DNA of 64,000 bases from Escherichia coli (GCA_022969815.1 GCA_022969815.1_4535.1); one strand, 5' to 3'. Counted from the first letter of the stretch, positions 21,569-61,530 are shown. Numbers and translations are program-made. Notes: generated by a model not told the origin, from the letters alone.

Positions 21569-21647
21569 TGGAGGCGGGAATCGGATTCGAACCGATGATC
21601 TCCAGCATATGAAACTGGCGAGGACGACCAAACTCCTCTATCCCGCT
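21569..21647 (-). tRNA. tRNA-Met (anticodon CAU; Ile2 not excluded)
   Basis: T-arm ATCGG-TTCGAAT-CCGAT, anticodon loop UUCAUAU, encoded CCA; folded by eye. Confidence 0.55.
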
Positions 21648-21651
21648 ATTA

Positions 21652-21724
21652 GGTGTCCCGTGCTGGATTCGAACCAGCATCACAATAGTTGTGGATCTCT
21701 TATCCTGTAAGTCTAACGGGAAAC
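21652..21724 (-). tRNA. tRNA-like element, anticodon arm unresolved
   Basis: Canonical T-arm GCTGG-TTCGAAT-CCAGC and acceptor-like 3' end, but no canonical anticodon stem-loop found. Confidence 0.3.
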
Positions 21725-21798
21725 TGGTTGTTTCGACAAGAATCGAACTTGTATCTCACGATTATCAGTCGTGGGTTCTACCATTGAACTACGAAACA
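21725..21798 (-). tRNA. tRNA-Ile (anticodon GAU)
   Basis: Acceptor UGUUUCG/CGAAACA, D-arm GUUC-AAUGGUA-GAAC, anticodon loop CUGAUAA, T-arm, encoded CCA. Confidence 0.6.
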
Positions 21799-21821
21799 TT
21801 TAATTGGTAGGAATTGCAGGA

Positions 21822-22163
21822 TTACCAAGTAACATCATGCCCTGAATGGAAAGCGCAATGACAGTTCTTACAGAGTAAGACGCAATTCTCTATCTCTTTG
21901 TCTATTCTTGCAAGTGACCAGCCACGCATAGATCCGTAGTTCTTATCTTTTATTGCTGGGTCAAGATGGTGAATATCCAAAGATTCTTCATACTGATTAA
22001 ATCCGCAAGCGGCGCACTTACCTCCTAACTTATCACGAGCATATTTTTTCTTATGTTGTCCAAGTTCTGTCGTATACTTATTATGACAGGCTCCACAAAT
22101 AGATTTCTTATGTCCGTAGAATTTCGTAGGATCTTCTTCGCCACAATGACTGCATTTACACAT
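21822..22163 (-). CDS. HNH endonuclease
   Basis: 113 aa; Cys-rich MCKCSHCGEED...CGACHNKY...CKNCHCAFHSGH with zinc-finger/HNH spacing; embedded in tRNA cluster. Confidence 0.55.
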   Translation of the reverse strand: MCKCSHCGEEDPTKFYGHKKSICGACHNKYTTELGQHKKKYARDKLGGKCAACGFNQYEESLDIHHLDPAIKDKNYGSMRGWSLARIDKEIENCVLLCKNCHCAFHSGHDVTW

Positions 22164-22184
22164 ACAAAAAATCTCTTTACAAAT

Positions 22185-22260
22185 TGGTCAGCCTAAGAAG
22201 ACTTGAACTTCTAACCTCACCGCCCCAAACGGCGCACTCTTCCAATTGAGCTATAGGCTG
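22185..22260 (-). tRNA. tRNA-Pro (anticodon UGG)
   Basis: Acceptor CAGCCUA/UAGGCUG, anticodon stem CGCCG/CGGUG with loop UUUGGGG, T-loop UUCAAGU, encoded CCA. Confidence 0.6.
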
Positions 22261-22460
22261 TTAATAAAAAATCTCACGTCTTATACAAGCTAACCTTTTG
22301 CCTGATGCATGAAATTTAAATACATTCTAAAGGTACACCGTAAAAGATTGTCGGGGCGATACTTCAAAAACATACCGATCCGTAGATCGATAATCAGACA
22401 AACTTCGACGGCTCCTCGTTTTTAACTTCACACTTAAGGTAGTGACTCACCTTTGTTATA

Positions 22461-22536
22461 TGGCTGGTCTGTCTGGATTTGAACCAAACCTACGACAGTC
22501 AAAGTGTCGTGTGCTACCGGACTACAATACAAACCA
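22461..22536 (-). tRNA. tRNA-Gln (anticodon UUG)
   Basis: Starts with U1-A72 pair as in bacterial tRNA-Gln; anticodon stem CGACA/UGUCG, loop CUUUGAC; T-loop UUCAAAU; encoded CCA. Confidence 0.6.
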
Positions 22537-22626
22537 TTTAATGAAGGGCAACCAGAAGAGGTGTGAGAGAAGGAGAAAACCATGAGTAAAAGAGAAAGTT
22601 TTCTGGCAACCCTTTATTAAATAATT

Positions 22627-22700
22627 TGGAGCGTTCTACGAGTTTCGAACTCGTGCCGCCGACTTGGAAGGACGGAATGCTACCGCTACACCAAGAACGC
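22627..22700 (-). tRNA. tRNA-Gly (anticodon UCC)
   Basis: Acceptor GCGUUCU/AGAACGC, anticodon loop CUUCCAA, T-arm ACGAG-UUCGAAA-CUCGU, encoded CCA. Confidence 0.55.
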
Positions 22701-22929
22701 CCTACATCTTTACTATACTACATTTTACTATCAGTTGTCAATAGTTTTATTGGGCGGGACAGTGACGAGTATCCCATTGGGTGACTAACCCTACGTTCGG
22801 TTGTGATTAATCTCCTGGGTGTCGCTTGCAACACTGGAAAACTCTCACGTCGATGGGAGAATCCGCTTCTTCTTTACCCCATCCAACCCTACTCCGGTCA
22901 AGTTTCAGGTGACTCTTTTTGTGATCAAC

Positions 22930-23260
22930 ACAATACTAAGAACACTGTCTTTCGAGCAGACCTTGTGCACAGGATACGACGATCAATCACAGTGCTCTTA
23001 ATGTTGTGCCACAATAATAAGAACATTCAAACGATGACCACTTTTAGTGGAGAGATTTACAAAATGCTCTTAATGTTGTGTTGTGAATACTAACCTCGGA
23101 ACTCATTACCGCGCTTTGGCTCGACCTTATTACAGGTTAGTGAATGTCTTTCGTCCGATTACATTCAATAAATTTGCTTTCTTCACAACGATAAGAACAC
23201 TTAACAGAAGATAGGTCTGATTGCCTCGGATGATTTCTCAGTAGCCTAAATGTTCTTACC
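22930..23260. repeat. repeat-containing spacer within tRNA cluster (TAAGAACA motif x4, 15-bp direct repeat x2)
   Basis: TAAGAACA at 22937, 23018, 23192 and inverted at 23251; GCTCTTAATGTTGTG at 22994-23008 and 23066-23080. Confidence 0.45.
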
Positions 23261-23268
23261 TGTTATGT

Positions 23269-23344
23269 TGGTGCTCCAAGTAGGACTCGAACCTACGACC
23301 TCATGCTTACAAGGCAAGTGCTCTACCAACTGAGCTATTGAAGC
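23269..23344 (-). tRNA. tRNA-Thr (anticodon UGU)
   Basis: Acceptor GCUUCAA/UUGGAGC, D-arm AGCUCAGUUGGUAGAGC, anticodon loop CUUGUAA, T-arm GUAGG-UUCGAGU-CCUAC, encoded CCA. Confidence 0.6.
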
Positions 23345-23696
23345 GTATTGCGCCCCTTCAGCCATGCTTGATGTTGACCAGAACACAGTTAAACTGTGGG
23401 AGGAGGAACACCGCAGGGGGCTTCAGTTGGACGACTTACAGGGAGCGACCCTGTTTCTTTTCTGGGACTCGGCAGGATTCGATACCTGCAATTCCAGAAG
23501 CCTCTTGGCAACTGAGGGTTTACCTTAACCCTACAAGTCCATAATTCTTAAATACTTTGGAGCCTTACTGATAAACCGTTAGTTTGTAACATAGCGTATT
23601 TCCATTCTGGGGCACCGCCTGTGAATGTAATTCCAATACAAACTTTCTCAAGATCAAACCAATTATCAAATAACATTACAACCTCCAGTTTGAATT

Positions 23697-23780
23697 TGGT
23701 GTGAGATGATGGATTCGAACCACCGCGCCTTTCAGAAGGGATTTACAGTCCCCCGCAATCGACCACTCTGCCAATCTCAC
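23697..23780 (-). tRNA. tRNA-Tyr (anticodon GUA)
   Basis: Acceptor GUGAGAU/AUCUCAC, anticodon loop CUGUAAA, long variable arm, T-arm GGUGG-UUCGAAU-CCAUC, encoded CCA. Confidence 0.6.
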
Positions 23781-23904
23781 AAAATTGTTTTTAAAGTAGC
23801 CAGTATTCGCGGTACTGACTATGCGGTATCGGAGATGGTGAGAGCCATCTGCCGAAAGTTTACTCTGTTAAAGTAAGAAACAACAAGCTACATTAAAAAC
23901 AACT

Positions 23905-23990
23905 TGGCGGTAGATGTAGGACTCGAACCTACACGCCGTTTCCGACTACAGTTTAGCAAACTGTTGTGGCTACCATTTCACCAATCTACC
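23905..23990 (-). tRNA. tRNA-Ser (anticodon GCU)
   Basis: Acceptor GGUAGAU/AUCUACC, anticodon stem ACAGU/ACUGU with loop UUGCUAA, long variable arm, encoded CCA. Confidence 0.6.
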
Positions 23991-23996
23991 TAAATT

Positions 23997-24086
23997 TGGA
24001 GGAAGGTAATGGAGTCGAACCATCACCGTATCTCTACAATGGGCCAGGGTTCAAATCTGGTTGCGTACCACTACGCCCTACCTTCC
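23997..24086 (-). tRNA. tRNA-Ser (anticodon UGA; long variable arm, Leu not excluded)
   Basis: Acceptor GGAAGGU/ACCUUCC, anticodon loop UUUGAAC with one stem mismatch, long variable arm, T-loop UUCGACU, encoded CCA. Confidence 0.5.
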
Positions 24087-24321
24087 ATACATTTAATCTA
24101 ACATAAAACGATGTTGATTGTCAACACCTTTTAAAACATTTTATTATGAATGGTGACTCCACCAACCCCCGTTCTCCACGAACGGTACTCTTCGAGCAAT
24201 CTACCCTTGCAATCAAACGTTGTACACCGTTAGCTTACTCATGCATATTTGCCTCATTCTCTGCCAACCATGATCAGTGGTAGGGTTCAAATCACTTGAG
24301 CTAATTCATACTAAAATGTTC

Positions 24322-24396
24322 TGGTGTCTTTACAAGGAATCGAACCTTGACTAAGAGTTTAGAAGACTCCTGTGCTATCCATTACACCATAAAGAC
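24322..24396 (-). tRNA. tRNA-Arg (anticodon UCU)
   Basis: Acceptor GUCUUUA/UAAAGAC, anticodon stem GGAGU/ACUCU with loop CUUCUAA, T-loop UUCGAUU, encoded CCA. Confidence 0.6.
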
Positions 24397-24398
24397 GT

Positions 24399-24473
24399 TG
24401 GTGGCCCTGACTGGTTTCGATCCAGTTGCCTATCGGTTATGAGCCGACTGCTCTCCCATTGAGCTACAGGGCC
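24399..24473 (-). tRNA. tRNA-Met (anticodon CAU; elongator or Ile2-type)
   Basis: Acceptor GGCCCUG/CAGGGCC with G1-C72, D-arm AGCUCAAUGGGAGAGC, anticodon loop CUCAUAA, encoded CCA. Confidence 0.6.
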
Positions 24474-53977: not shown

Positions 53978-54307
53978 ATGGAAATTACTACAGAACAGGC
54001 TCTTATCGACGAAGGGCGTAAAATCTTAGAGAAGCATTTGGGAGATATACATCAAACCCCTGGCTACTTAGGGTGGCGCATGGTTGAAGCTGTAGATTTC
54101 CTTCCTCGTACAAAACAAGACGTTGAAATGCGTTCTCTGTTCTTGCTTGTCAAAGTAGACGGGGATACGCCTTTCAAACTCGCAGCTTCACACATTGAGA
54201 AGGTGGAGGAGAAAGCTTATTCAGAGTTTGCTGAACTCGTATTACAGGAGGATCTCGAAGGGAAGGTAAACATTTTTATTTTTCTGGATTTTGAGGAGGA
54301 GATATGA
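53978..54307 (+). CDS. hypothetical protein
   Basis: GAGGAGG RBS. Confidence 0.5.
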   Translation: MEITTEQALIDEGRKILEKHLGDIHQTPGYLGWRMVEAVDFLPRTKQDVEMRSLFLLVKVDGDTPFKLAASHIEKVEEKAYSEFAELVLQEDLEGKVNIFIFLDFEEEI

Positions 54308-55041
54308 TTTTATATAAAGAGATTACCGTGGAGCAGGATCAAGACCTCTTCATTATCGGGGACTTGCATGGTTGCTACGATCTTTACTTGAAAGGTAAGA
54401 ATTATCTTGGTATCCGAGATACAGATGTGGTTGTGTCTCTCGGAGATTTGACAGATCGTGGTAAACAAAACTTCAAATGTGTTGTGGAATTTACACGCAA
54501 AGAGAATCGTTATGCGCTTTGTGGTAATCACGAAGATATGATGATTAAAGGCTTACTGGAAGGGGATCGTCGTTACTACGAATGTTGGTATCAGAACGGT
54601 GGTCATACGGTATTGGAAGAATGTGATGAAGAAGGATCTACTCTGCTCGCTACGATGGTTGAGGACAACCCTGTGATTTTGGTTGTGAACTATCGAGGTA
54701 TGAAGTTAGGGTTTATTCATGGTGGATATCCTTCCTCTTTTGAATATCTCCCCCTGACAGACATACCACACCTACGTATGAGCAAAGCAAAAGAAGCTAC
54801 TTTCGCTGAAGCTTTGATGTGGGATCGTGATATGGTGGAGTGTGCCAAAGAAGGCATGAAACTTCCGGTTGTTATGGGTGTTGATTATGTGTTTCACGGG
54901 CACTCTTATGTGAAAGAACCTTTGATCAATGCTAATCGTGTTTATATGGACACTGGGTCTGTTTTCAATAACAACTTAACGTTTGCCTATTTTGATGCAG
55001 ACGGTGGACTTCAGTTTTATTCAACTTTACAGGAGGATTAA
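54304..55041 (+). CDS. Ser/Thr protein phosphatase (lambda PPase-like metallophosphatase)
   Basis: GDLHGCYD, GDLTDRG, GNHE motifs in canonical order. Confidence 0.8.
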   Translation: MILYKEITVEQDQDLFIIGDLHGCYDLYLKGKNYLGIRDTDVVVSLGDLTDRGKQNFKCVVEFTRKENRYALCGNHEDMMIKGLLEGDRRYYECWYQNGGHTVLEECDEEGSTLLATMVEDNPVILVVNYRGMKLGFIHGGYPSSFEYLPLTDIPHLRMSKAKEATFAEALMWDRDMVECAKEGMKLPVVMGVDYVFHGHSYVKEPLINANRVYMDTGSVFNNNLTFAYFDADGGLQFYSTLQED

Positions 55042-55342: not shown

Positions 55343-55921
55343 ATGAGCAACCTATTTTACACAGGTGTGGGAAGTCGAGAGATAACCCACGAAGAATGGG
55401 ATTTAATGGTCGCTGTAGCAAAGTGGTTGGCTAACTGTGGTTTTACTTTACGTTCAGGTAATGCAAACGGTAGTGACTCTGCTTTCGAAACTGGTGTAGA
55501 AGAATCTAAAAACAAAACTCTCAAGGAGATTTATATCCCTTGGGAGAAGTTTGAAGGCAATGATATCCCAGGTGAGAAGATAGTGCTTGCTAATCCTGAC
55601 AGTATGAACTATGCTATCAGTCTCCAGTGGATAAAGGAAATCCATCCAGCATTTGATAAACTTAAACAAGGTGCACGTAAATTGCATCAACGCAACGTTC
55701 ATCAGGTGTTGGGACAAGATCTGGAGCATCCCGTGCCTTCCTTATTCTTATTGGCATGTTCCAAAGAGGATAAGAAGGGAGATGTTATGGGCGGAACAAG
55801 GACGGCGTGGCTCATCGCTAAAGCTAATAACGTTCCATGTTTTAACTTACGTGGTAAAACAAAGGAAGAACTTTATGCTTTTCTTAAACCGTTGGTCAAG
55901 GGGGCAATCAGTGGCAATTAA
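55343..55921 (+). CDS. DprA/SLOG-family Rossmann-fold protein, putative
   Basis: YTGVGSRE and LRSGNANGSDSAFETG resemble DprA/Smf blocks; ATG at 55343. Confidence 0.35.
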   Translation: MSNLFYTGVGSREITHEEWDLMVAVAKWLANCGFTLRSGNANGSDSAFETGVEESKNKTLKEIYIPWEKFEGNDIPGEKIVLANPDSMNYAISLQWIKEIHPAFDKLKQGARKLHQRNVHQVLGQDLEHPVPSLFLLACSKEDKKGDVMGGTRTAWLIAKANNVPCFNLRGKTKEELYAFLKPLVKGAISGN

Positions 55922-56435
55922 GTTAAATCGTGCAAACGTAGGTAATCGTTTTAACCTTAGCCGTATAAACGAGGATACAGATGTTACAGCAGATATTGAA
56001 AAAATCATGCAGGGTATTGTCCATCACGGTTTGCGTTTTGCCAGGGATTTGGTAATCTTCCGTTATGACGGAGAAGATGATCGTTCAAAGAATGATGGGA
56101 TTATCTTCGTAGATAAAGATTTAACCCAAGCAGATATTGAACAGATCAACCGTTATTTTATTGGTGTAGGGGATCTTCAAGACACGCAGCTTGCACGTAT
56201 GGCAGAAATTCTGGCGAATAAATTGTTGCAAGATATCGGAAAAGTTCTTGACAAAAATCCAAAACATGTTATAGTGACTATCCACAAAATGAGTTTTATT
56301 AAGTATCTTAACAAACCTGGTAAACTGGGTTATGGATGGATACGCACAAGTGGACCACAAACCACTCTCGAAACCGAGATGTGCTATACAATTGAAGAAG
56401 TAAAACGTGAGGAGGAAGAAAATGGCGGAATTTAA
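55911..56435 (+). CDS. hypothetical protein
   Basis: GTG start at 55911 with AAGGGGG RBS; upstream part of ORF 55653..56435 lies inside the preceding gene. Confidence 0.35.
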   Translation: MAIKLNRANVGNRFNLSRINEDTDVTADIEKIMQGIVHHGLRFARDLVIFRYDGEDDRSKNDGIIFVDKDLTQADIEQINRYFIGVGDLQDTQLARMAEILANKLLQDIGKVLDKNPKHVIVTIHKMSFIKYLNKPGKLGYGWIRTSGPQTTLETEMCYTIEEVKREEEENGGI

Positions 56436-56712
56436 TGAAGTGAAAAGTTACGAAAGCAACTTCGTAAGCAATTGGGAAGCATGGGATGAGATGGGTGTTG
56501 GTGAACTCTATTTCTACAATGTAACCCTTCGTCCAGAATATCAACATCTCATTCCAGAAGGCACTGTGCAGATCGGTATGTTCATGTCTTCTCAAGACGG
56601 TGTTGTGCAGTTTGAGTTTTACTCTGACACAGAACTGAACGAATTCACTTATCGTGCATTCAATATCGTATTAGCTTTAGGAGAGGAGAAATTTTATGAC
56701 GACGAAGTATAA
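56422..56712 (+). CDS. hypothetical protein
   Basis: GAGGAGGAAG RBS before ATG at 56422. Confidence 0.45.
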   Translation: MAEFNEVKSYESNFVSNWEAWDEMGVGELYFYNVTLRPEYQHLIPEGTVQIGMFMSSQDGVVQFEFYSDTELNEFTYRAFNIVLALGEEKFYDDEV

Positions 56713-56893
56713 AACAGTAGCAGAAGCACTGAAAGCAGCACACGAAGCCATTGCAGAAGCTGAACAATTGGCTGATGAAACTGGCACAAGTTTTCACTTC
56801 TCAGTTGAATATGGGATGGGTGGTACTTATGACCCAGAAGATGAGAACGAATACACTGGGACCAACTGGCACCCATCTTCCCTCGGTTGTTAA
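56696..56893 (+). CDS. small protein, paralog family member 1 (C-terminal W-x-SS-x-C)
   Basis: GGAGAGGAG RBS; C-terminus GTNWHPSSLGC. Confidence 0.5.
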   Translation: MTTKYKTVAEALKAAHEAIAEAEQLADETGTSFHFSVEYGMGGTYDPEDENEYTGTNWHPSSLGC

Positions 56894-56907
56894 TAAGGAG
56901 AAATAAA

Positions 56908-57126
56908 ATGAGTGATCGTAATGCACAAGCATTAGCAGACAAAGCAAAAGAAATCATGAAGCTTGTGGATGCACTGGCAGCAGAAGCTGAACAGTTTGGT
57001 TTCGGAGTAAGCTTAGAAAATGATGCAATTTCTTTTGAAGATTGGCAGTCTTCCGCTTGCTATGGCGAAGGTGATGATGGTTTCACCGTGGATTCGGATG
57101 GTGTTTGGTACAGCAGTAATTGTTAA
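56908..57126 (+). CDS. small protein, paralog family member 2
   Basis: AAGGAG RBS; C-terminus DGVWYSSNC. Confidence 0.5.
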   Translation: MSDRNAQALADKAKEIMKLVDALAAEAEQFGFGVSLENDAISFEDWQSSACYGEGDDGFTVDSDGVWYSSNC

Positions 57127-57135
57127 GGAGGGATC

Positions 57136-57405
57136 ATGTCAGAAGGTATCGCCTTAATCAAGGCAAAAGTTAAAGAGATGGAAGCATCACAACAGAAGTT
57201 CCGCAACGAGATTGAAGAACTTTGTGAGCAGTTCCAAGAACAAGCGTGGATCGGTGATTACGGGAATGGGGAAACTTATTACCCAACAGGAACAAACGCA
57301 GAAGAACATTACCTCACCTATATCTGCGGAGACTATGATGTTGAGATTGACGAAAACGGTCTGATGACCCAAGGTCTTTGGGTGTCTTCCTCGGAAATGT
57401 GCTAA
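57136..57405 (+). CDS. small protein, paralog family member 3
   Basis: AAGGAGGG RBS; C-terminus QGLWVSSSEMC. Confidence 0.5.
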   Translation: MSEGIALIKAKVKEMEASQQKFRNEIEELCEQFQEQAWIGDYGNGETYYPTGTNAEEHYLTYICGDYDVEIDENGLMTQGLWVSSSEMC

Positions 57406-57413
57406 TAAATAAT

Positions 57414-57436
57414 AACCCGCTTCGGCGGGTTTTTTA
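57414..57436 (+). terminator. rho-independent terminator
   Basis: CCCGCTTCGGCGGG hairpin followed by TTTTTT. Confidence 0.55.
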
Positions 57437-57447
57437 TTGTGTGAGTG

Positions 57448-57476
57448 TTGACAAGACACGAAGAACCTGGTAGACT
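57448..57476 (+). promoter_or_regulatory. sigma70-like promoter
   Basis: TTGACA - 17 nt - TAGACT. Confidence 0.5.
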
Positions 57477-57504: not shown

Positions 57505-58449
57505 ATGAAAGTATTAATCGGTAGTCGTGCGTTGGAAATGATTTGTCGTTCTCGTGGTGTAGAACTGTATCGTGCTTGCGTAGATCTGGATTACCTCTGC
57601 ACTGAAGAAGAGTGGCAAGCAGAAGCCCAGAAATTCTCGAAAGATCGTTTCGTGGAAATTGTTGAACGTAAAGGTAACAAAGGGCATATCAAAATGATCG
57701 CGGGTGCTCATCTGGAATACGATATTGCTCAACCAGGGGATTCTACAGAAGCATTGATCGAATACATTAAAGAGAATGCAGATCATCTGCCACATATTGG
57801 TTACGATGTGGTTGCACCTTTGGATGTTTTGTATCTCCTGAAAATGAGTCACCGTTTTAAGAAGGACAGTCCTCACTTCCTGAAAACAATGAAGGATATC
57901 CACTTCATGCGTAACCTTGGAGCGAAGATCCCTGAAGAGTTGGAAGATACATACAAACTGCGTCAGAAGGAGTCCTATAATTACGGGCACCCTAATCTGA
58001 ACGTGAAAAGTAAAGATTTCTTCAAGGGTGATGAAGTGCCTTATGTGTATGATCACGATACCATCCATGAAGCTGTTGCCGTGTTGGGTGATCCCGCTTA
58101 TAAATCATACATGAAAGACGATAGCGAAGTGATGACCAGTAAAGAGAAGTTCTTTGCACAACCTAAACATATCCGTTTGCTGGGTGTTTACGAAGAAGCT
58201 TGTGTCCTGGCATTAGAGCGTTCACAGATCCCGTTTGGGGAAGATGTAGATGGTCCAACTCCTAAACAAAGTTTTATGATGGCTTTATCCAAAGTTTGTA
58301 CCTCGATCACCAGTGGATGGTTTCGTGAATATGCCTGGGAAAACTTCCAAGTTGTGGTAAAACTGTATGAGCAAATGGGCCAAGATGATTACGTGGCACG
58401 TTTTAAAGCAAATCTTCACATGGTGAAACCTTACGAAGGAGGTTATTGA
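57505..58449 (+). CDS. hypothetical protein
   Basis: GAGAGGAGG RBS before ATG at 57505; 314 aa. Confidence 0.5.
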   Translation: MKVLIGSRALEMICRSRGVELYRACVDLDYLCTEEEWQAEAQKFSKDRFVEIVERKGNKGHIKMIAGAHLEYDIAQPGDSTEALIEYIKENADHLPHIGYDVVAPLDVLYLLKMSHRFKKDSPHFLKTMKDIHFMRNLGAKIPEELEDTYKLRQKESYNYGHPNLNVKSKDFFKGDEVPYVYDHDTIHEAVAVLGDPAYKSYMKDDSEVMTSKEKFFAQPKHIRLLGVYEEACVLALERSQIPFGEDVDGPTPKQSFMMALSKVCTSITSGWFREYAWENFQVVVKLYEQMGQDDYVARFKANLHMVKPYEGGY

Positions 58450-58450
58450 T

Positions 58451-58849
58451 ATGGGTTGGTGTGATCAGTCACAAAGTTACTTCAAAGTAACACATGTGGA
58501 TCTCAATAAAGCAAGAGTGAAGTTGTTGAGTATTGAAAAAGAAACAGCAGCTATTGACAAACGCCTCCGAGAGAGTAAAGTGGTAATCACTTCTTGGTTC
58601 GGACTGAAACGTAAAATCCTTACGCAGCGAGAGCATGTAATTAAAAATATGCATGGTTGGGCTTGGTTCCACGACATGGCAAAACACTTGGGGTACATTT
58701 CTACTGAAGAACACGACCTCTTGGAGCTACGTTATCGCCTTCCAGATGTAGAAGATTTAGACTTGTGGATCAGTTCCGAACAAATCTTCTTAACCGAGAG
58801 CGATTGGAAGAAAGTCAATATTTGTCTTAAATGGAGGGAGAATGAGTAA
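58451..58849 (+). CDS. hypothetical protein
   Basis: GAAGGAGG RBS. Confidence 0.5.
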   Translation: MGWCDQSQSYFKVTHVDLNKARVKLLSIEKETAAIDKRLRESKVVITSWFGLKRKILTQREHVIKNMHGWAWFHDMAKHLGYISTEEHDLLELRYRLPDVEDLDLWISSEQIFLTESDWKKVNICLKWRENE

Positions 58850-59525
58850 AGTAGTTTTATCAACATTTGATGGATCTGGAATCATGGTACTTCGTTACGC
58901 AGAAGCAGGGCATAAATGCTACTGTGTAAATGCTGACGAAGGTGATCACGGGGCTTATGAAGTTCGCATGGAACATCCTAACATCACTTACGTGAACGCA
59001 TGGATTGATTCCAACTTCAACCCTGAAGATTACGGTATTCCTAAGCCAGATATTATCTTTGGCTTCCCTCCGTGTACCATGCTTGCTGGTTGCGGTAGTA
59101 AGCACGAACGTAGCGCAGAAGAATTGGAAGAAGCTTTGGCTAACATTCGTATCGTGGAAGCTTTAGGAAATAAATACAACGTTCCGTGGATGATTGAGAA
59201 TCCAGTGGGTAAACTGTCAACATTGTGGCGTAAACCGGATTTCTATTTCGATCCTTACGAATATGGCGGATATCTGTTTGATGAAGAAGGCAGCTTCCAC
59301 CCTAAAATGCCTACCCGCGACGGTTACACAAAGAAAACCTGTATTTGGCATGGCAATGGTTTTGTTAAGCCTGTGAAGAAGCCTGTGGAACATATTGGTT
59401 GCTTCTGGGGCTGGAAAAGTTTAGGCGGAGCAAGTGCGAAAACAAAACAACTCCGATCGTTAACTGCTCGCGGTTTTGCTCGTGCTGTGTTTTTATCTAA
59501 CAACCTTTTAGATAAGGAGGAATGA
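58842..59525 (+). CDS. DNA cytosine-5 methyltransferase-like protein (minimal), putative
   Basis: LSTFDGSG (motif I-like FxGxG), GFPPCTML (motif IV PC), ENPVG (motif VI ENV-like); only 227 aa. Confidence 0.4.
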   Translation: MSKVVLSTFDGSGIMVLRYAEAGHKCYCVNADEGDHGAYEVRMEHPNITYVNAWIDSNFNPEDYGIPKPDIIFGFPPCTMLAGCGSKHERSAEELEEALANIRIVEALGNKYNVPWMIENPVGKLSTLWRKPDFYFDPYEYGGYLFDEEGSFHPKMPTRDGYTKKTCIWHGNGFVKPVKKPVEHIGCFWGWKSLGGASAKTKQLRSLTARGFARAVFLSNNLLDKEE

Positions 59526-60247: not shown

Positions 60248-60742
60248 ATGTTTCAAGTAGAAATTCATGTGCACGACAGTTGTTCAAATTGCGAAACTTG
60301 TGGTTACAATAGTTCAACCATGATCACTATTAGCGGAGACTTAGGACATGCTAAGTTTGGCGAAGTCGCAAGCTGCTTCGGCGGAGAGGATGCAGATTGG
60401 CATGATATTGCTTTGTGGCTATGCGGAAGACTGAATGTAAATTGTAAAGACTTCCCTGAACTGTTGAGCCGAAATCTTGTCGATAGTCGGGAACAAGCCT
60501 ACAATATTTATGCCGCTTCTGTTTATGTTGATCATAAATGGGTAGAAGATGAAGAAGCTGAACGTTTGCTACGCCTCTACTATGAAGCAGAGGAAGCTTA
60601 TGATAACTATTACAGCATGTCCAACATCCTGCGTTTGTTTGCAGAGTTTGATATTTACTTTGAAGTGAGTTATTCTGAAGATGAAGTGTATGATTTTGAT
60701 GACGATGATTACGAGGAGGATGAAGAATGCCAAGACGATTAA
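60248..60742 (+). CDS. hypothetical acidic protein
   Basis: GGGAGGA RBS before ATG at 60248; very acidic C-terminus. Confidence 0.45.
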   Translation: MFQVEIHVHDSCSNCETCGYNSSTMITISGDLGHAKFGEVASCFGGEDADWHDIALWLCGRLNVNCKDFPELLSRNLVDSREQAYNIYAASVYVDHKWVEDEEAERLLRLYYEAEEAYDNYYSMSNILRLFAEFDIYFEVSYSEDEVYDFDDDDYEEDEECQDD

Positions 60743-61530
60743 TAGTGATCAGCGGCGCTGGTCTAAGCGCCGATAGCGGTGTACAAACATTCCGTACAGA
60801 AACAGAGAGTGGAAAAGCCTTATGGGACGAGTACGATTTAGAGGAGGTTTGTAATATTGGGGCATTCCAGGCAGGTTATCGTAGACGTACATGTCCCGAT
60901 TTACCTGTTATCGGAGGTGAGGATGAGGAAGGATACAACCTCTACAACAAGACCCATGATTTCTATAACAAGCGTCGTATAGAGTTGGATAATATAGATC
61001 CAAACGCTGCACATCGTCTGATTGCTCGTTTATACTCAGAGTATGGCGCTGATCGTATTTTAAACATCACCACTAACGTGGACGATCTTTTGGAACGTGC
61101 TGGTGTTGTTCACGAAGATGTTCTGCATGTGCATGGCTACCTACCAGAAATTGTAGTGGATCGGAAGTTTATTAAAGAAATCGGTTATGCAAGTGTGGAT
61201 GTGGATAAGTACGATTACGTGAAACCTAACGTTGTCTTCTTCGGGGAATCTGCTCCGCTGTACACAGAGATGTACCATATGCTCGATAATCTCACATCTC
61301 AGGATATGGTGATTGTTGTAGGTTGCTCTAATCAAGTGATCAACTTCAACTGGGAGTTGTTCCCAGCCCTCAATACAGGAACAAAGATGGTCGTAGTTAA
61401 TCCTGGGGTTAATTACGAAGAAACACTTCTCTATGAAGATCGTGGAGTTTTTGTTTACCGAGAAAAAGCTGCAACAGCCTTCAGTAATGAAGGTTTCATT
61501 AAAATGATCGAAGACCACTTAAACAAATAA
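60727..61530 (+). CDS. Sir2-family (sirtuin-like) NAD-binding protein lacking the zinc ribbon
   Basis: VISGAGLSADSGVQTFR, ITTNVDDLLERAG, HVHG, KPNVVFFGES, VVGCS parallel sirtuin catalytic blocks; no CxxC...CxxC Zn module. Confidence 0.55.
   Translation: MPRRLIVISGAGLSADSGVQTFRTETESGKALWDEYDLEEVCNIGAFQAGYRRRTCPDLPVIGGEDEEGYNLYNKTHDFYNKRRIELDNIDPNAAHRLIARLYSEYGADRILNITTNVDDLLERAGVVHEDVLHVHGYLPEIVVDRKFIKEIGYASVDVDKYDYVKPNVVFFGESAPLYTEMYHMLDNLTSQDMVIVVGCSNQVINFNWELFPALNTGTKMVVVNPGVNYEETLLYEDRGVFVYREKAATAFSNEGFIKMIEDHLNK

Follow-up and report, generated by a model that had tools for sequence, protein, structure and literature searches.

The window analysed here, a 64,000-nucleotide stretch of DNA from Escherichia coli (GCA_022969815.1), contains three consecutive small genes, called A, B and C below, and a downstream gene encoding a protein of 314 amino acids. 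The window derives from a Phapecoctavirus (Stephanstirmvirinae): identity of the region was 97–98% to Escherichia phages phiWec188 and phiWec190, and approximately 75% to phages of the common phAPEC8/Mt1B1_P17 type. An earlier note on this DNA had described the small genes as tandem, diversified paralogues with a shared C-terminal motif and as possible host-interaction or anti-defence factors. We found that they belong to one large protein family and are likely coupled in function to the downstream gene, which encodes a predicted nucleotidyltransferase that they may regulate. The four genes are:

56696–56893, plus strand: gene A, 65 amino acids, canonical member; match to PHROG 899 at E = 6.7e-14; isoelectric point (pI) 4.4
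56908–57126, plus strand: gene B, 72 amino acids counted from ATG, B subtype; match to PHROG 899 at E = 2.5e-4; pI 4.05
57136–57405, plus strand: gene C, 89 amino acids, C subtype; match to PHROG 899 at E = 8.6e-13; pI 4.1
57505–58449, plus strand: partner gene, 314 amino acids; profile matches to Pfam DUF7277 (N-terminal) and DUF7275 and to PHROG 2141

The small proteins A, B and C

The three open reading frames (ORFs) of 65, 72 and 89 amino acids were recovered where the earlier note had placed them on the plus strand, and the C-termini that it quoted (GTNWHPSSLGC, DGVWYSSNC and QGLWVSSSEMC) were exact. Its claim of a strong ribosome binding site for each gene was confirmed by Shine-Dalgarno sequences 6–9 nt before the starts (GGAGAGGAG for A, AAGGAG for B and AAGGAGG for C), all of them strong. 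When every ORF of 40 amino acids or more in the six frames of the window was considered, a W..S..C-type tail stood at the end of A, B and C only. Pairwise BLASTP was nearly blind to their relationship (A–C, E = 0.016; no match for A–B or B–C), and the paralogy was shown by profiles instead. All three proteins matched PHROG 899, an independent profile of unknown function, and each match covered its C-terminal 74 positions (approximately 148–221). Searches of the small proteins against Pfam, NCBIfam and PADLOC gave no model matches, just sub-threshold noise of the coiled-coil type, and a word-indexed homologue search with the single proteins returned close orthologues only.

Gene A encodes a helix (residues 8–29), FHFSVEYGMGGTY and the tail N-W-H-P-S-S-L-G-C-COOH, the last residue of which is the sole cysteine of the protein. 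In the product of gene C, AWIGDYGNGETYYP is accompanied by a longer insert, and the tail, L-W-V-S-S-S-E-M-C-COOH, is canonical. Gene B ends in the short tail VWYSSNC-COOH (W-Y-S-S-N-C) and contains the tail motif once more internally, as WQSSAC at residues 45–50 (DWQSSAC-YGEG). In B-type proteins this internal DW-x-SS-x-C is fused to YGE-G and replaces the canonical FxFSxxYGMGG strand-turn, an arrangement also kept in the B-type proteins of T4-like phages. Tails of the B subtype read W-x-S-S-x-C or W-x-x-S-S-C, and the short tail is conserved in other phages. An AlphaFold2 model of A, built with 104 sequences (mean predicted local distance difference test score (pLDDT) 89, predicted template modelling score (pTM) 0.71), backed the N-terminal helix that had been proposed from the sequence. 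It comprised a helix at residues 8–29, strands at 33–36, 42–45 and 58–60, and a short terminal helical turn at 61–64. Confidence was lowest in the tail (pLDDT 68 for the last block).

When 1.84 billion representatives were searched in full with HMMER, a profile made from A, B, C and their orthologues retrieved, at E ≤ 1e-3, 255 clusters defined at 50% identity. Almost all of these were 65–150 amino acids long, and the family match ran to the last residue in every one of the 255 cluster representatives. The family consensus consists of an N-terminal amphipathic helix (..EAExIADExG), the segment FxFSxxYGMGGTYYP, a variable acidic linker and the tail G-W-x-[S/P/A]-S-S-x-x-C; the linker places the tryptophan 14–72 residues beyond the YG motif. 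A terminal cysteine was present in 143 of 147 representatives and was the only cysteine of the protein in 83 of the 147. The tryptophan stood at position −7 in 137 of 143 and serines at −4 and −3 in 139 of 143. The proteins are acidic (pI 4.05–4.36 for A, B and C; family median 4.5).

Tandem sets of 2–5 paralogues were common in 55 viral contigs, which had been collected by a back-translated YGMGG DNA pattern and whose ORFs were then searched with the family hidden Markov model (HMM). In divergent paralogues, helix and tail were retained and YGMGG was lost. A, B and C are thus true paralogues of one large family that is labelled as being of unknown function. That the shared C-terminal motif might be coincidental could be dismissed: it was the most conserved feature of the family, carried by hundreds of homologues, and in a multiple alignment with orthologues the Y-G, W, S and terminal C were invariant. 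Copy number varied among phages as anticipated, from 1 to 6 small copies. The label 'RraB', attached by JGI to one homologue (P0225), was isolated and unsupported.

Linkage to the downstream gene

Clustering of neighbouring genes revealed one outstanding conserved neighbour of the small family, a protein of about 300 amino acids with the domains DUF7277 and DUF7275. Its gene followed the small genes immediately and in the same orientation in 34 of the 35 loci with enough flanking sequence, often after a gap of 4–60 nt; in the window, the end of gene C at 57405 is followed by the start of the enzyme gene at 57505. The linkage was also examined in reverse, in 80 viral loci chosen by the enzyme protein alone. 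Small members were found upstream on the same strand in 71 of these by HMM and in 4 more by motif. Counted by lineage (75% identity), 35 of 36 enzyme lineages had small copies upstream (1–6 each), and the next commonest neighbours were an HNH-like protein (9/36 lineages) and a metallophosphatase (8/36). We consider a functional coupling of A, B and C with the MenT-like nucleotidyltransferase encoded downstream likely.

Distant homologues of the enzyme (approximately 30% identity; from Gordonia phages, Streptomyces phages and a roseophage) had no small member immediately upstream, which suggests that the enzyme may be the effector of the module and the small proteins its accessories. A contig of 305,782 bp from a jumbo phage carried a small member without an enzyme gene in the 8.7 kb downstream (L039 8781–9059; L133). 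The same contig has the enzyme elsewhere, and jumbo phages may carry unlinked extra copies. The homologue of the metallophosphatase within a few kb of the module is a moderate association that may reflect shared gene order only.

The partner enzyme

Alignments of 27 and 37 homologues of the 314-amino-acid protein showed invariant G6-S7, D27-x-D29, K113, H116, H184-D185, H188, E230-E231 and E238-R239. Nearly invariant were E71 (at least 90% of sequences), D131 and C265, the last of these within K-V-C-T-S-I-T-S-G-W. Together, G6-S7, D27-x-D29 and E71 form the signature of a Pol-beta nucleotidyltransferase (motifs I and II and the third carboxylate). The AlphaFold2 model, for which homologues were obtained by exact cluster look-up, had a pLDDT of 90.9 and a pTM of 0.85. 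It was bilobed and MenT-like, its closest predicted fold relatives being the toxins MenT1, MenT3 and MenT4, and Foldseek independently placed MenT1 at the top (E = 7e-4). The fold relatives include ANT(2'') and LnuA, O-nucleotidylating enzymes that act on hydroxyls. The enzyme is mildly acidic overall; its segment 106–170 (with K113, R117, K127 and R136) has a pI of 9.6. K113 and D131 are 18 residues apart, compared with 15–22 for the second-lobe Lys and Asp of MenT1, MenT3 and MenT4, a comparison of spacing only. A search of PDB sequences with the enzyme profile returned no match, and a few GenBank records annotate the protein as 'putative nucleotidyltransferase'. From the motifs and the model, the product of 57505–58449 is predicted to be a Pol-beta-type nucleotidyltransferase with a MenT-like fold. 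A HEPN assignment based on an R-x6-H motif in the enzyme was rejected on the grounds that the histidine is not conserved.

The fold makes tRNA a candidate target of the enzyme, a suggestion that is weakly echoed by nearby tRNA and RNA-repair genes. Genes for tRNAs were found no more than 5 kb away at 16 of 60 loci selected by the enzyme, a set with many related members. They abut the module in some contigs of T4-like phages, and in L124 seven tRNA genes lie immediately upstream of the enzyme gene, with no small genes. Around distant enzyme homologues, tRNA genes were seen 1.2 kb downstream in Gordonia phage Cucurbita (the loci for this and the abutting tRNA genes are L124 3615–4567, L101 4005–4407 and L139 4850–5358), genes for a metallophosphoesterase and RNA ligase 2 at 1–2 kb upstream in roseophage DSS3_VP1 (L141 265–1810), and a polynucleotide kinase gene at 1–2 kb upstream in Streptomyces phage BillNye (L140 1–684). 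The window itself has 11 tRNA genes on the minus strand at 21569–24473 (Met twice, Ile, Pro, Gln, Gly, Thr, Tyr, Ser twice and Arg), a cluster that lies 33 kb from the module.

Evolution and distribution

With subtype HMMs built from Phapecoctavirus orthologues, the small proteins of T4-like phages sorted into C, A and B types with margins of 20–77 bits. The gene order was C-A-B-(fourth copy) in Edwardsiella phage PEi20 (L104) and C-B in Aeromonas phage 25 (L111), compared with A-B-C in the window. Since the subtypes are recognizable in T4-like phages, either their split is ancient or the block moves as one piece. Between the window and Mt1B1_P17, the nonsynonymous divergence (dN) was 0.11 for A, 0.19 for B and 0.17 for C, with 0.15 for the enzyme gene and 0.38 for the next ORF. 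The ratio of dN to synonymous divergence (dS) was 0.04–0.18 where it could be computed, dS being saturated. These values indicate purifying selection on A, B and C and give no sign of arms-race diversification. The idea that the copies had diversified recently was therefore contradicted by the large score margins of the subtypes in T4-like phages, and that of fast diversification by the purifying selection between two Phapecoctavirus clades, in which the small genes evolved no faster than their neighbours.

The enzyme was found in 706 phage records, among them Phapecoctavirus, many T4-like phages (of Escherichia, Klebsiella, Enterobacter, Acinetobacter and Aeromonas), Pseudomonas syringae phages and jumbo phages. 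In RB69, the module consists of the small members ORF137c and ORF136c, a split copy (ORF139c/138c) and the enzyme ORF134c. The split copy (L138 1614–1920) looks like one member divided by a frameshift, one ORF reading FSVGDYGSGRTYYPKGE and the other ending in GAWVSSPALC. A search of the available literature library returned no mention of DUF7275, DUF7277, the PHROG numbers, the YGMGG motif, RB69ORF134c or the linkage of these.

Transcription signals and neighbouring genes

The following further features surround the small genes:

56248–56275, plus strand: promoter-like site, TTGACA-16-TATAGT, 11/12 consensus matches, with a TG extension
56422–56712, plus strand: orf96, an ORF of 96 amino acids with a profile match to PHROG 4991, function unknown
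57414–57431, plus strand: intrinsic-terminator-like hairpin AACCCGC-TTCG-GCGGGTT (7 bp, G+C-rich) with a T-run; 57414–57441 with TTTTTATTGTG
57448–57476, plus strand: promoter-like site before the nucleotidyltransferase gene, TTGACA-17-TAGACT, with a TG extension

The promoter-like sites of the region are consensus matches only, and their number did not exceed the expectation from shuffled sequence. The site at 56248–56275 could drive orf96, A, B and C as a single transcript. The 3' end of orf96 shares 17 nt with the beginning of gene A, and the two are probably co-transcribed. Its cluster occurred near the module in few loci other than the window (L012, L027 and L050). The earlier note had the block of small genes end at a terminator, followed by a strong promoter. 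Both sites are present, but the reading of this point as the end of the unit did not stand, the next gene (57505–58449) being the conserved partner.

In Escherichia phage Mt1B1_P17, an unrelated gene of 91 amino acids lies between the orthologues of A and B (L001 3467–3742). This insert is typical of the common phapecoctaviruses, ends in FQPEEKY without a cysteine tail, and is missing from the phiWec188-type clade to which the window belongs. Elsewhere in the window, 54304–55041 encodes a metallophosphatase (annotated as 'serine/threonine protein phosphatase' in phiWec188), and the early block also includes 55343–55918, for a protein of DprA-like or SLOG type (PHROG 768; Pfam DNA_processg_A matched weakly). 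Downstream of the module are genes for a DNA-methyltransferase-like protein (58842–59525; PHROG 757, contains GFPPCT) and for a SIR2/CobB-type NAD-dependent deacylase (60727–61530), the latter labelled from the annotation of relatives.

Proposed role of the module

We hypothesize, by analogy with the MenAT1 system of Mycobacterium tuberculosis, that A, B and C are cognate acidic regulators of the adjacent enzyme, probably pseudo-substrate inhibitors that dock onto its basic cleft and insert their Cys-terminated tail; we put the probability of this at roughly 40%. The small proteins and the nucleotidyltransferase would form a conserved, phage-specific two-part module. The former are very acidic, cytoplasmic proteins with a predicted N-terminal amphipathic helix packed on a three-stranded sheet, the acidic linker and the tail. 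The helix and the acidic surface would dock onto the basic active-site cleft, and the tail G-W-x-S-S-S-x-x-Cys would be inserted as a pseudo-substrate, so that the Trp, the Ser hydroxyls and the carboxylate or thiol of the terminal Cys are placed near the catalytic D-x-D/E metal site. As an outcome, nucleotide transfer, probably onto tRNA 3' ends, might be gated or inhibited, and the subtypes might differ in timing or specificity. We infer that small protein and enzyme make contact, that regulation runs in this direction and that the tail enters the active site. The charge complementarity between the small proteins (pI 4.05–4.36) and segment 106–170 of the enzyme counts for docking.

MenT toxins add nucleotides to the 3'-CCA ends of tRNA and thereby block aminoacylation (PMC7450476). 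MenT1 is neutralized by MenA1, a protein of 68 amino acids encoded just upstream, the N-terminal helix of which lies across the electropositive active site (PMC10435456, PMC11375011). This precedent counts for a regulatory role of A, B and C and is analogous in logic, not in ancestry. In both systems, a gene for a small protein with an N-terminal helix is found directly upstream of a bilobed Pol-beta-type nucleotidyltransferase. In contrast, there is no sequence similarity on either side, and the small proteins showed neither sequence nor fold similarity to MenA1, which is a helix-loop-helix protein, whereas they combine a helix with a three-stranded sheet and a conserved Cys-terminal tail. 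The phage enzyme exceeds MenT1 by about 120 residues, with DUF7275 as an additional helical region, and has no Thr/Ser phosphoacceptor. The phage module also differs from MenAT1 in having 1–6 small genes and in occurring in lytic phages and almost never on bacterial chromosomes. The enzyme resembles AbiE (AbiEi/AbiEii), MenAT3 and MenAT4 (DUF1814; PMC7450476) in fold class and in Pol-beta motifs I and II. Its second-lobe pair K113/D131 may correspond to K189/D211 of MenT3 and K171/D186 of MenT4, an equivalence based on spacing only. The antitoxins of those systems are, however, large COG5340 winged helix-turn-helix proteins, and AbiE, MenAT3 and MenAT4 are bacterial defences against phages, while the module described here is phage-borne.

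Several observations weigh against the regulator hypothesis. When AbiEii/DUF1814 was sought in Pfam, only DUF7275 and DUF7277 matched all 27 enzyme homologues, even at E ≤ 10, and PADLOC (including AbiE) and NCBIfam gave zero matches to the enzyme. The phosphoacceptor Ser/Thr of the MenT toxins, two residues before the first catalytic Asp, is not present; the position is occupied by Cys25 in the window and mostly by Pro in homologues (R-x-[P/C]-x-D-x-D). In one lineage (L062-64, L071), the enzyme is present but small genes were not detected, and in the window gene C and the enzyme gene have a terminator and a promoter between them. Among bacterial genomes of 185,579 species (one genome each), the module was detected in 5 contigs, all of them from metagenome-assembled genomes; with this near-absence it does not behave as a classical toxin-antitoxin addiction module. 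It is unusual for antitoxins that three to six anciently diverged paralogues are kept together. Lastly, the invariant Ser-Ser and terminal Cys suggest chemistry, either modification or metal binding, over mere binding.

The small proteins might instead be substrates or carriers, with Ser-4/Ser-3 or the terminal Cys receiving a nucleoside monophosphate or phosphate from the enzyme. Once modified, they would be the active product or serve as protein-linked primers, and the paralogues would be alternative substrates. Such a role would account for the small nucleophilic residues, which are invariant and keep a fixed distance to the free C-terminus, for a tail that was modelled with the least confidence and for the tight linkage to the enzyme. 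It also agrees with the hydroxyl O-nucleotidylation by the fold relatives ANT(2'') and LnuA, and with phosphate transfer to Ser/Thr, including auto-phosphorylation, in the MenT family (PMC11375011). A simple substrate tail would need neither the conserved folded domain nor the helix, and the actinophage homologues of the enzyme lack the small family immediately upstream. We know of no MenT-like enzyme that modifies a separate protein. A precedent from outside that family is the type VII toxin-antitoxin system HepT-MntA, in which a nucleotidyltransferase AMPylates its partner. It shares with the phage module the genetic pairing of a Pol-beta-type nucleotidyltransferase and a small partner; unlike in HepT-MntA, where the enzyme is the antitoxin and a HEPN RNase is modified on Tyr, we found no HEPN motif and no conserved Tyr site. 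On balance, we regard a substrate role as unlikely. We consider it distinctly less credible that the small proteins act alone on host targets, in anti-defence or host takeover (e.g. as acidic nucleic-acid mimics), with the adjacency merely an inherited gene order. Small, acidic proteins of the early region would suit this, as would the separate transcription unit in the window, the extra copy away from the enzyme gene on the jumbo-phage contig (L039) and the unrelated 91-amino-acid gene between A and B in the common phapecoctaviruses. Yet the adjacency persists in Phapecoctavirus, T4-like, Otagovirus-like and jumbo phages with enzymes only 40–50% identical and no other conserved neighbour, evolution of the small genes was not accelerated, and no defence-related model was matched.

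Two further explanations start from the cysteine. Together with the Ser and Trp, it could serve as a metal, iron-sulfur or redox ligand, the paralogues oligomerizing so that their tails build one site, possibly with Cys265 of the enzyme. The single invariant Cys at the very C-terminus, the joint retention of several distinct subtypes and the nearly invariant Cys in K-V-C-T-S-I-T-S-G-W are in line with such a site. One thiol per chain is, however, a weak ligand set, and there was no clean correlation between the two cysteines: position 265 is Ile or Val in actinophage homologues, yet Cys is kept in lineages without small genes. We judge this explanation very unlikely, and it is extremely improbable that the small proteins are precursors of ribosomally synthesized and post-translationally modified peptides, in which the S-x-x-C-COOH tail would become a lanthionine or aminovinyl-cysteine (AviCys) ring and the N-terminal part would be the leader. 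The tail resembles AviCys sites of the epidermin or cypemycin type, the genes are small, tandem and multi-copy, and S(-3)-x-x-C(0) with an obligatory C-terminal Cys is present in A, in C and in the family, although this is not sufficient alone. However, B-type tails are spaced differently, the whole protein is predicted with high confidence to be a compact fold, there is no signal or export gene, and neighbour clustering revealed no conserved dehydratase, cyclase, flavin decarboxylase or radical-SAM gene nearby.

Compared with the known systems of a nucleotidyltransferase and a small upstream partner, the module is new in being phage-borne and multi-copy and in combining a new fold with a motif that ends in a free, C-terminal cysteine. 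The most far-reaching version of the regulator hypothesis, a widespread, phage-only system in which a MenT-like enzyme acts on tRNA 3' ends under a new class of regulators whose free Cys-terminated tail (W-x-S-S-S-x-x-C) mimics or is covalently joined to the substrate, is at present doubtful. Such a system would serve in host shut-off, or in repairing or countering tRNA damage inflicted by defence systems, with A, B and C tuning its timing or targets.

Significance

Both protein families are labelled 'unknown function' and yet are common in well-used phages, including RB69-like phages and the phapecoctaviruses that are candidates for therapy. With the small proteins linked to a MenT-like enzyme, two anonymous families become one testable system. 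If the proposed role is true, a function would be assigned to a frequent block of 'hypothetical' early genes, and a conserved free C-terminal cysteine would be a new regulatory or pseudo-substrate motif. Phages would then use the same enzyme fold as the abortive-infection and toxin effectors of bacteria.

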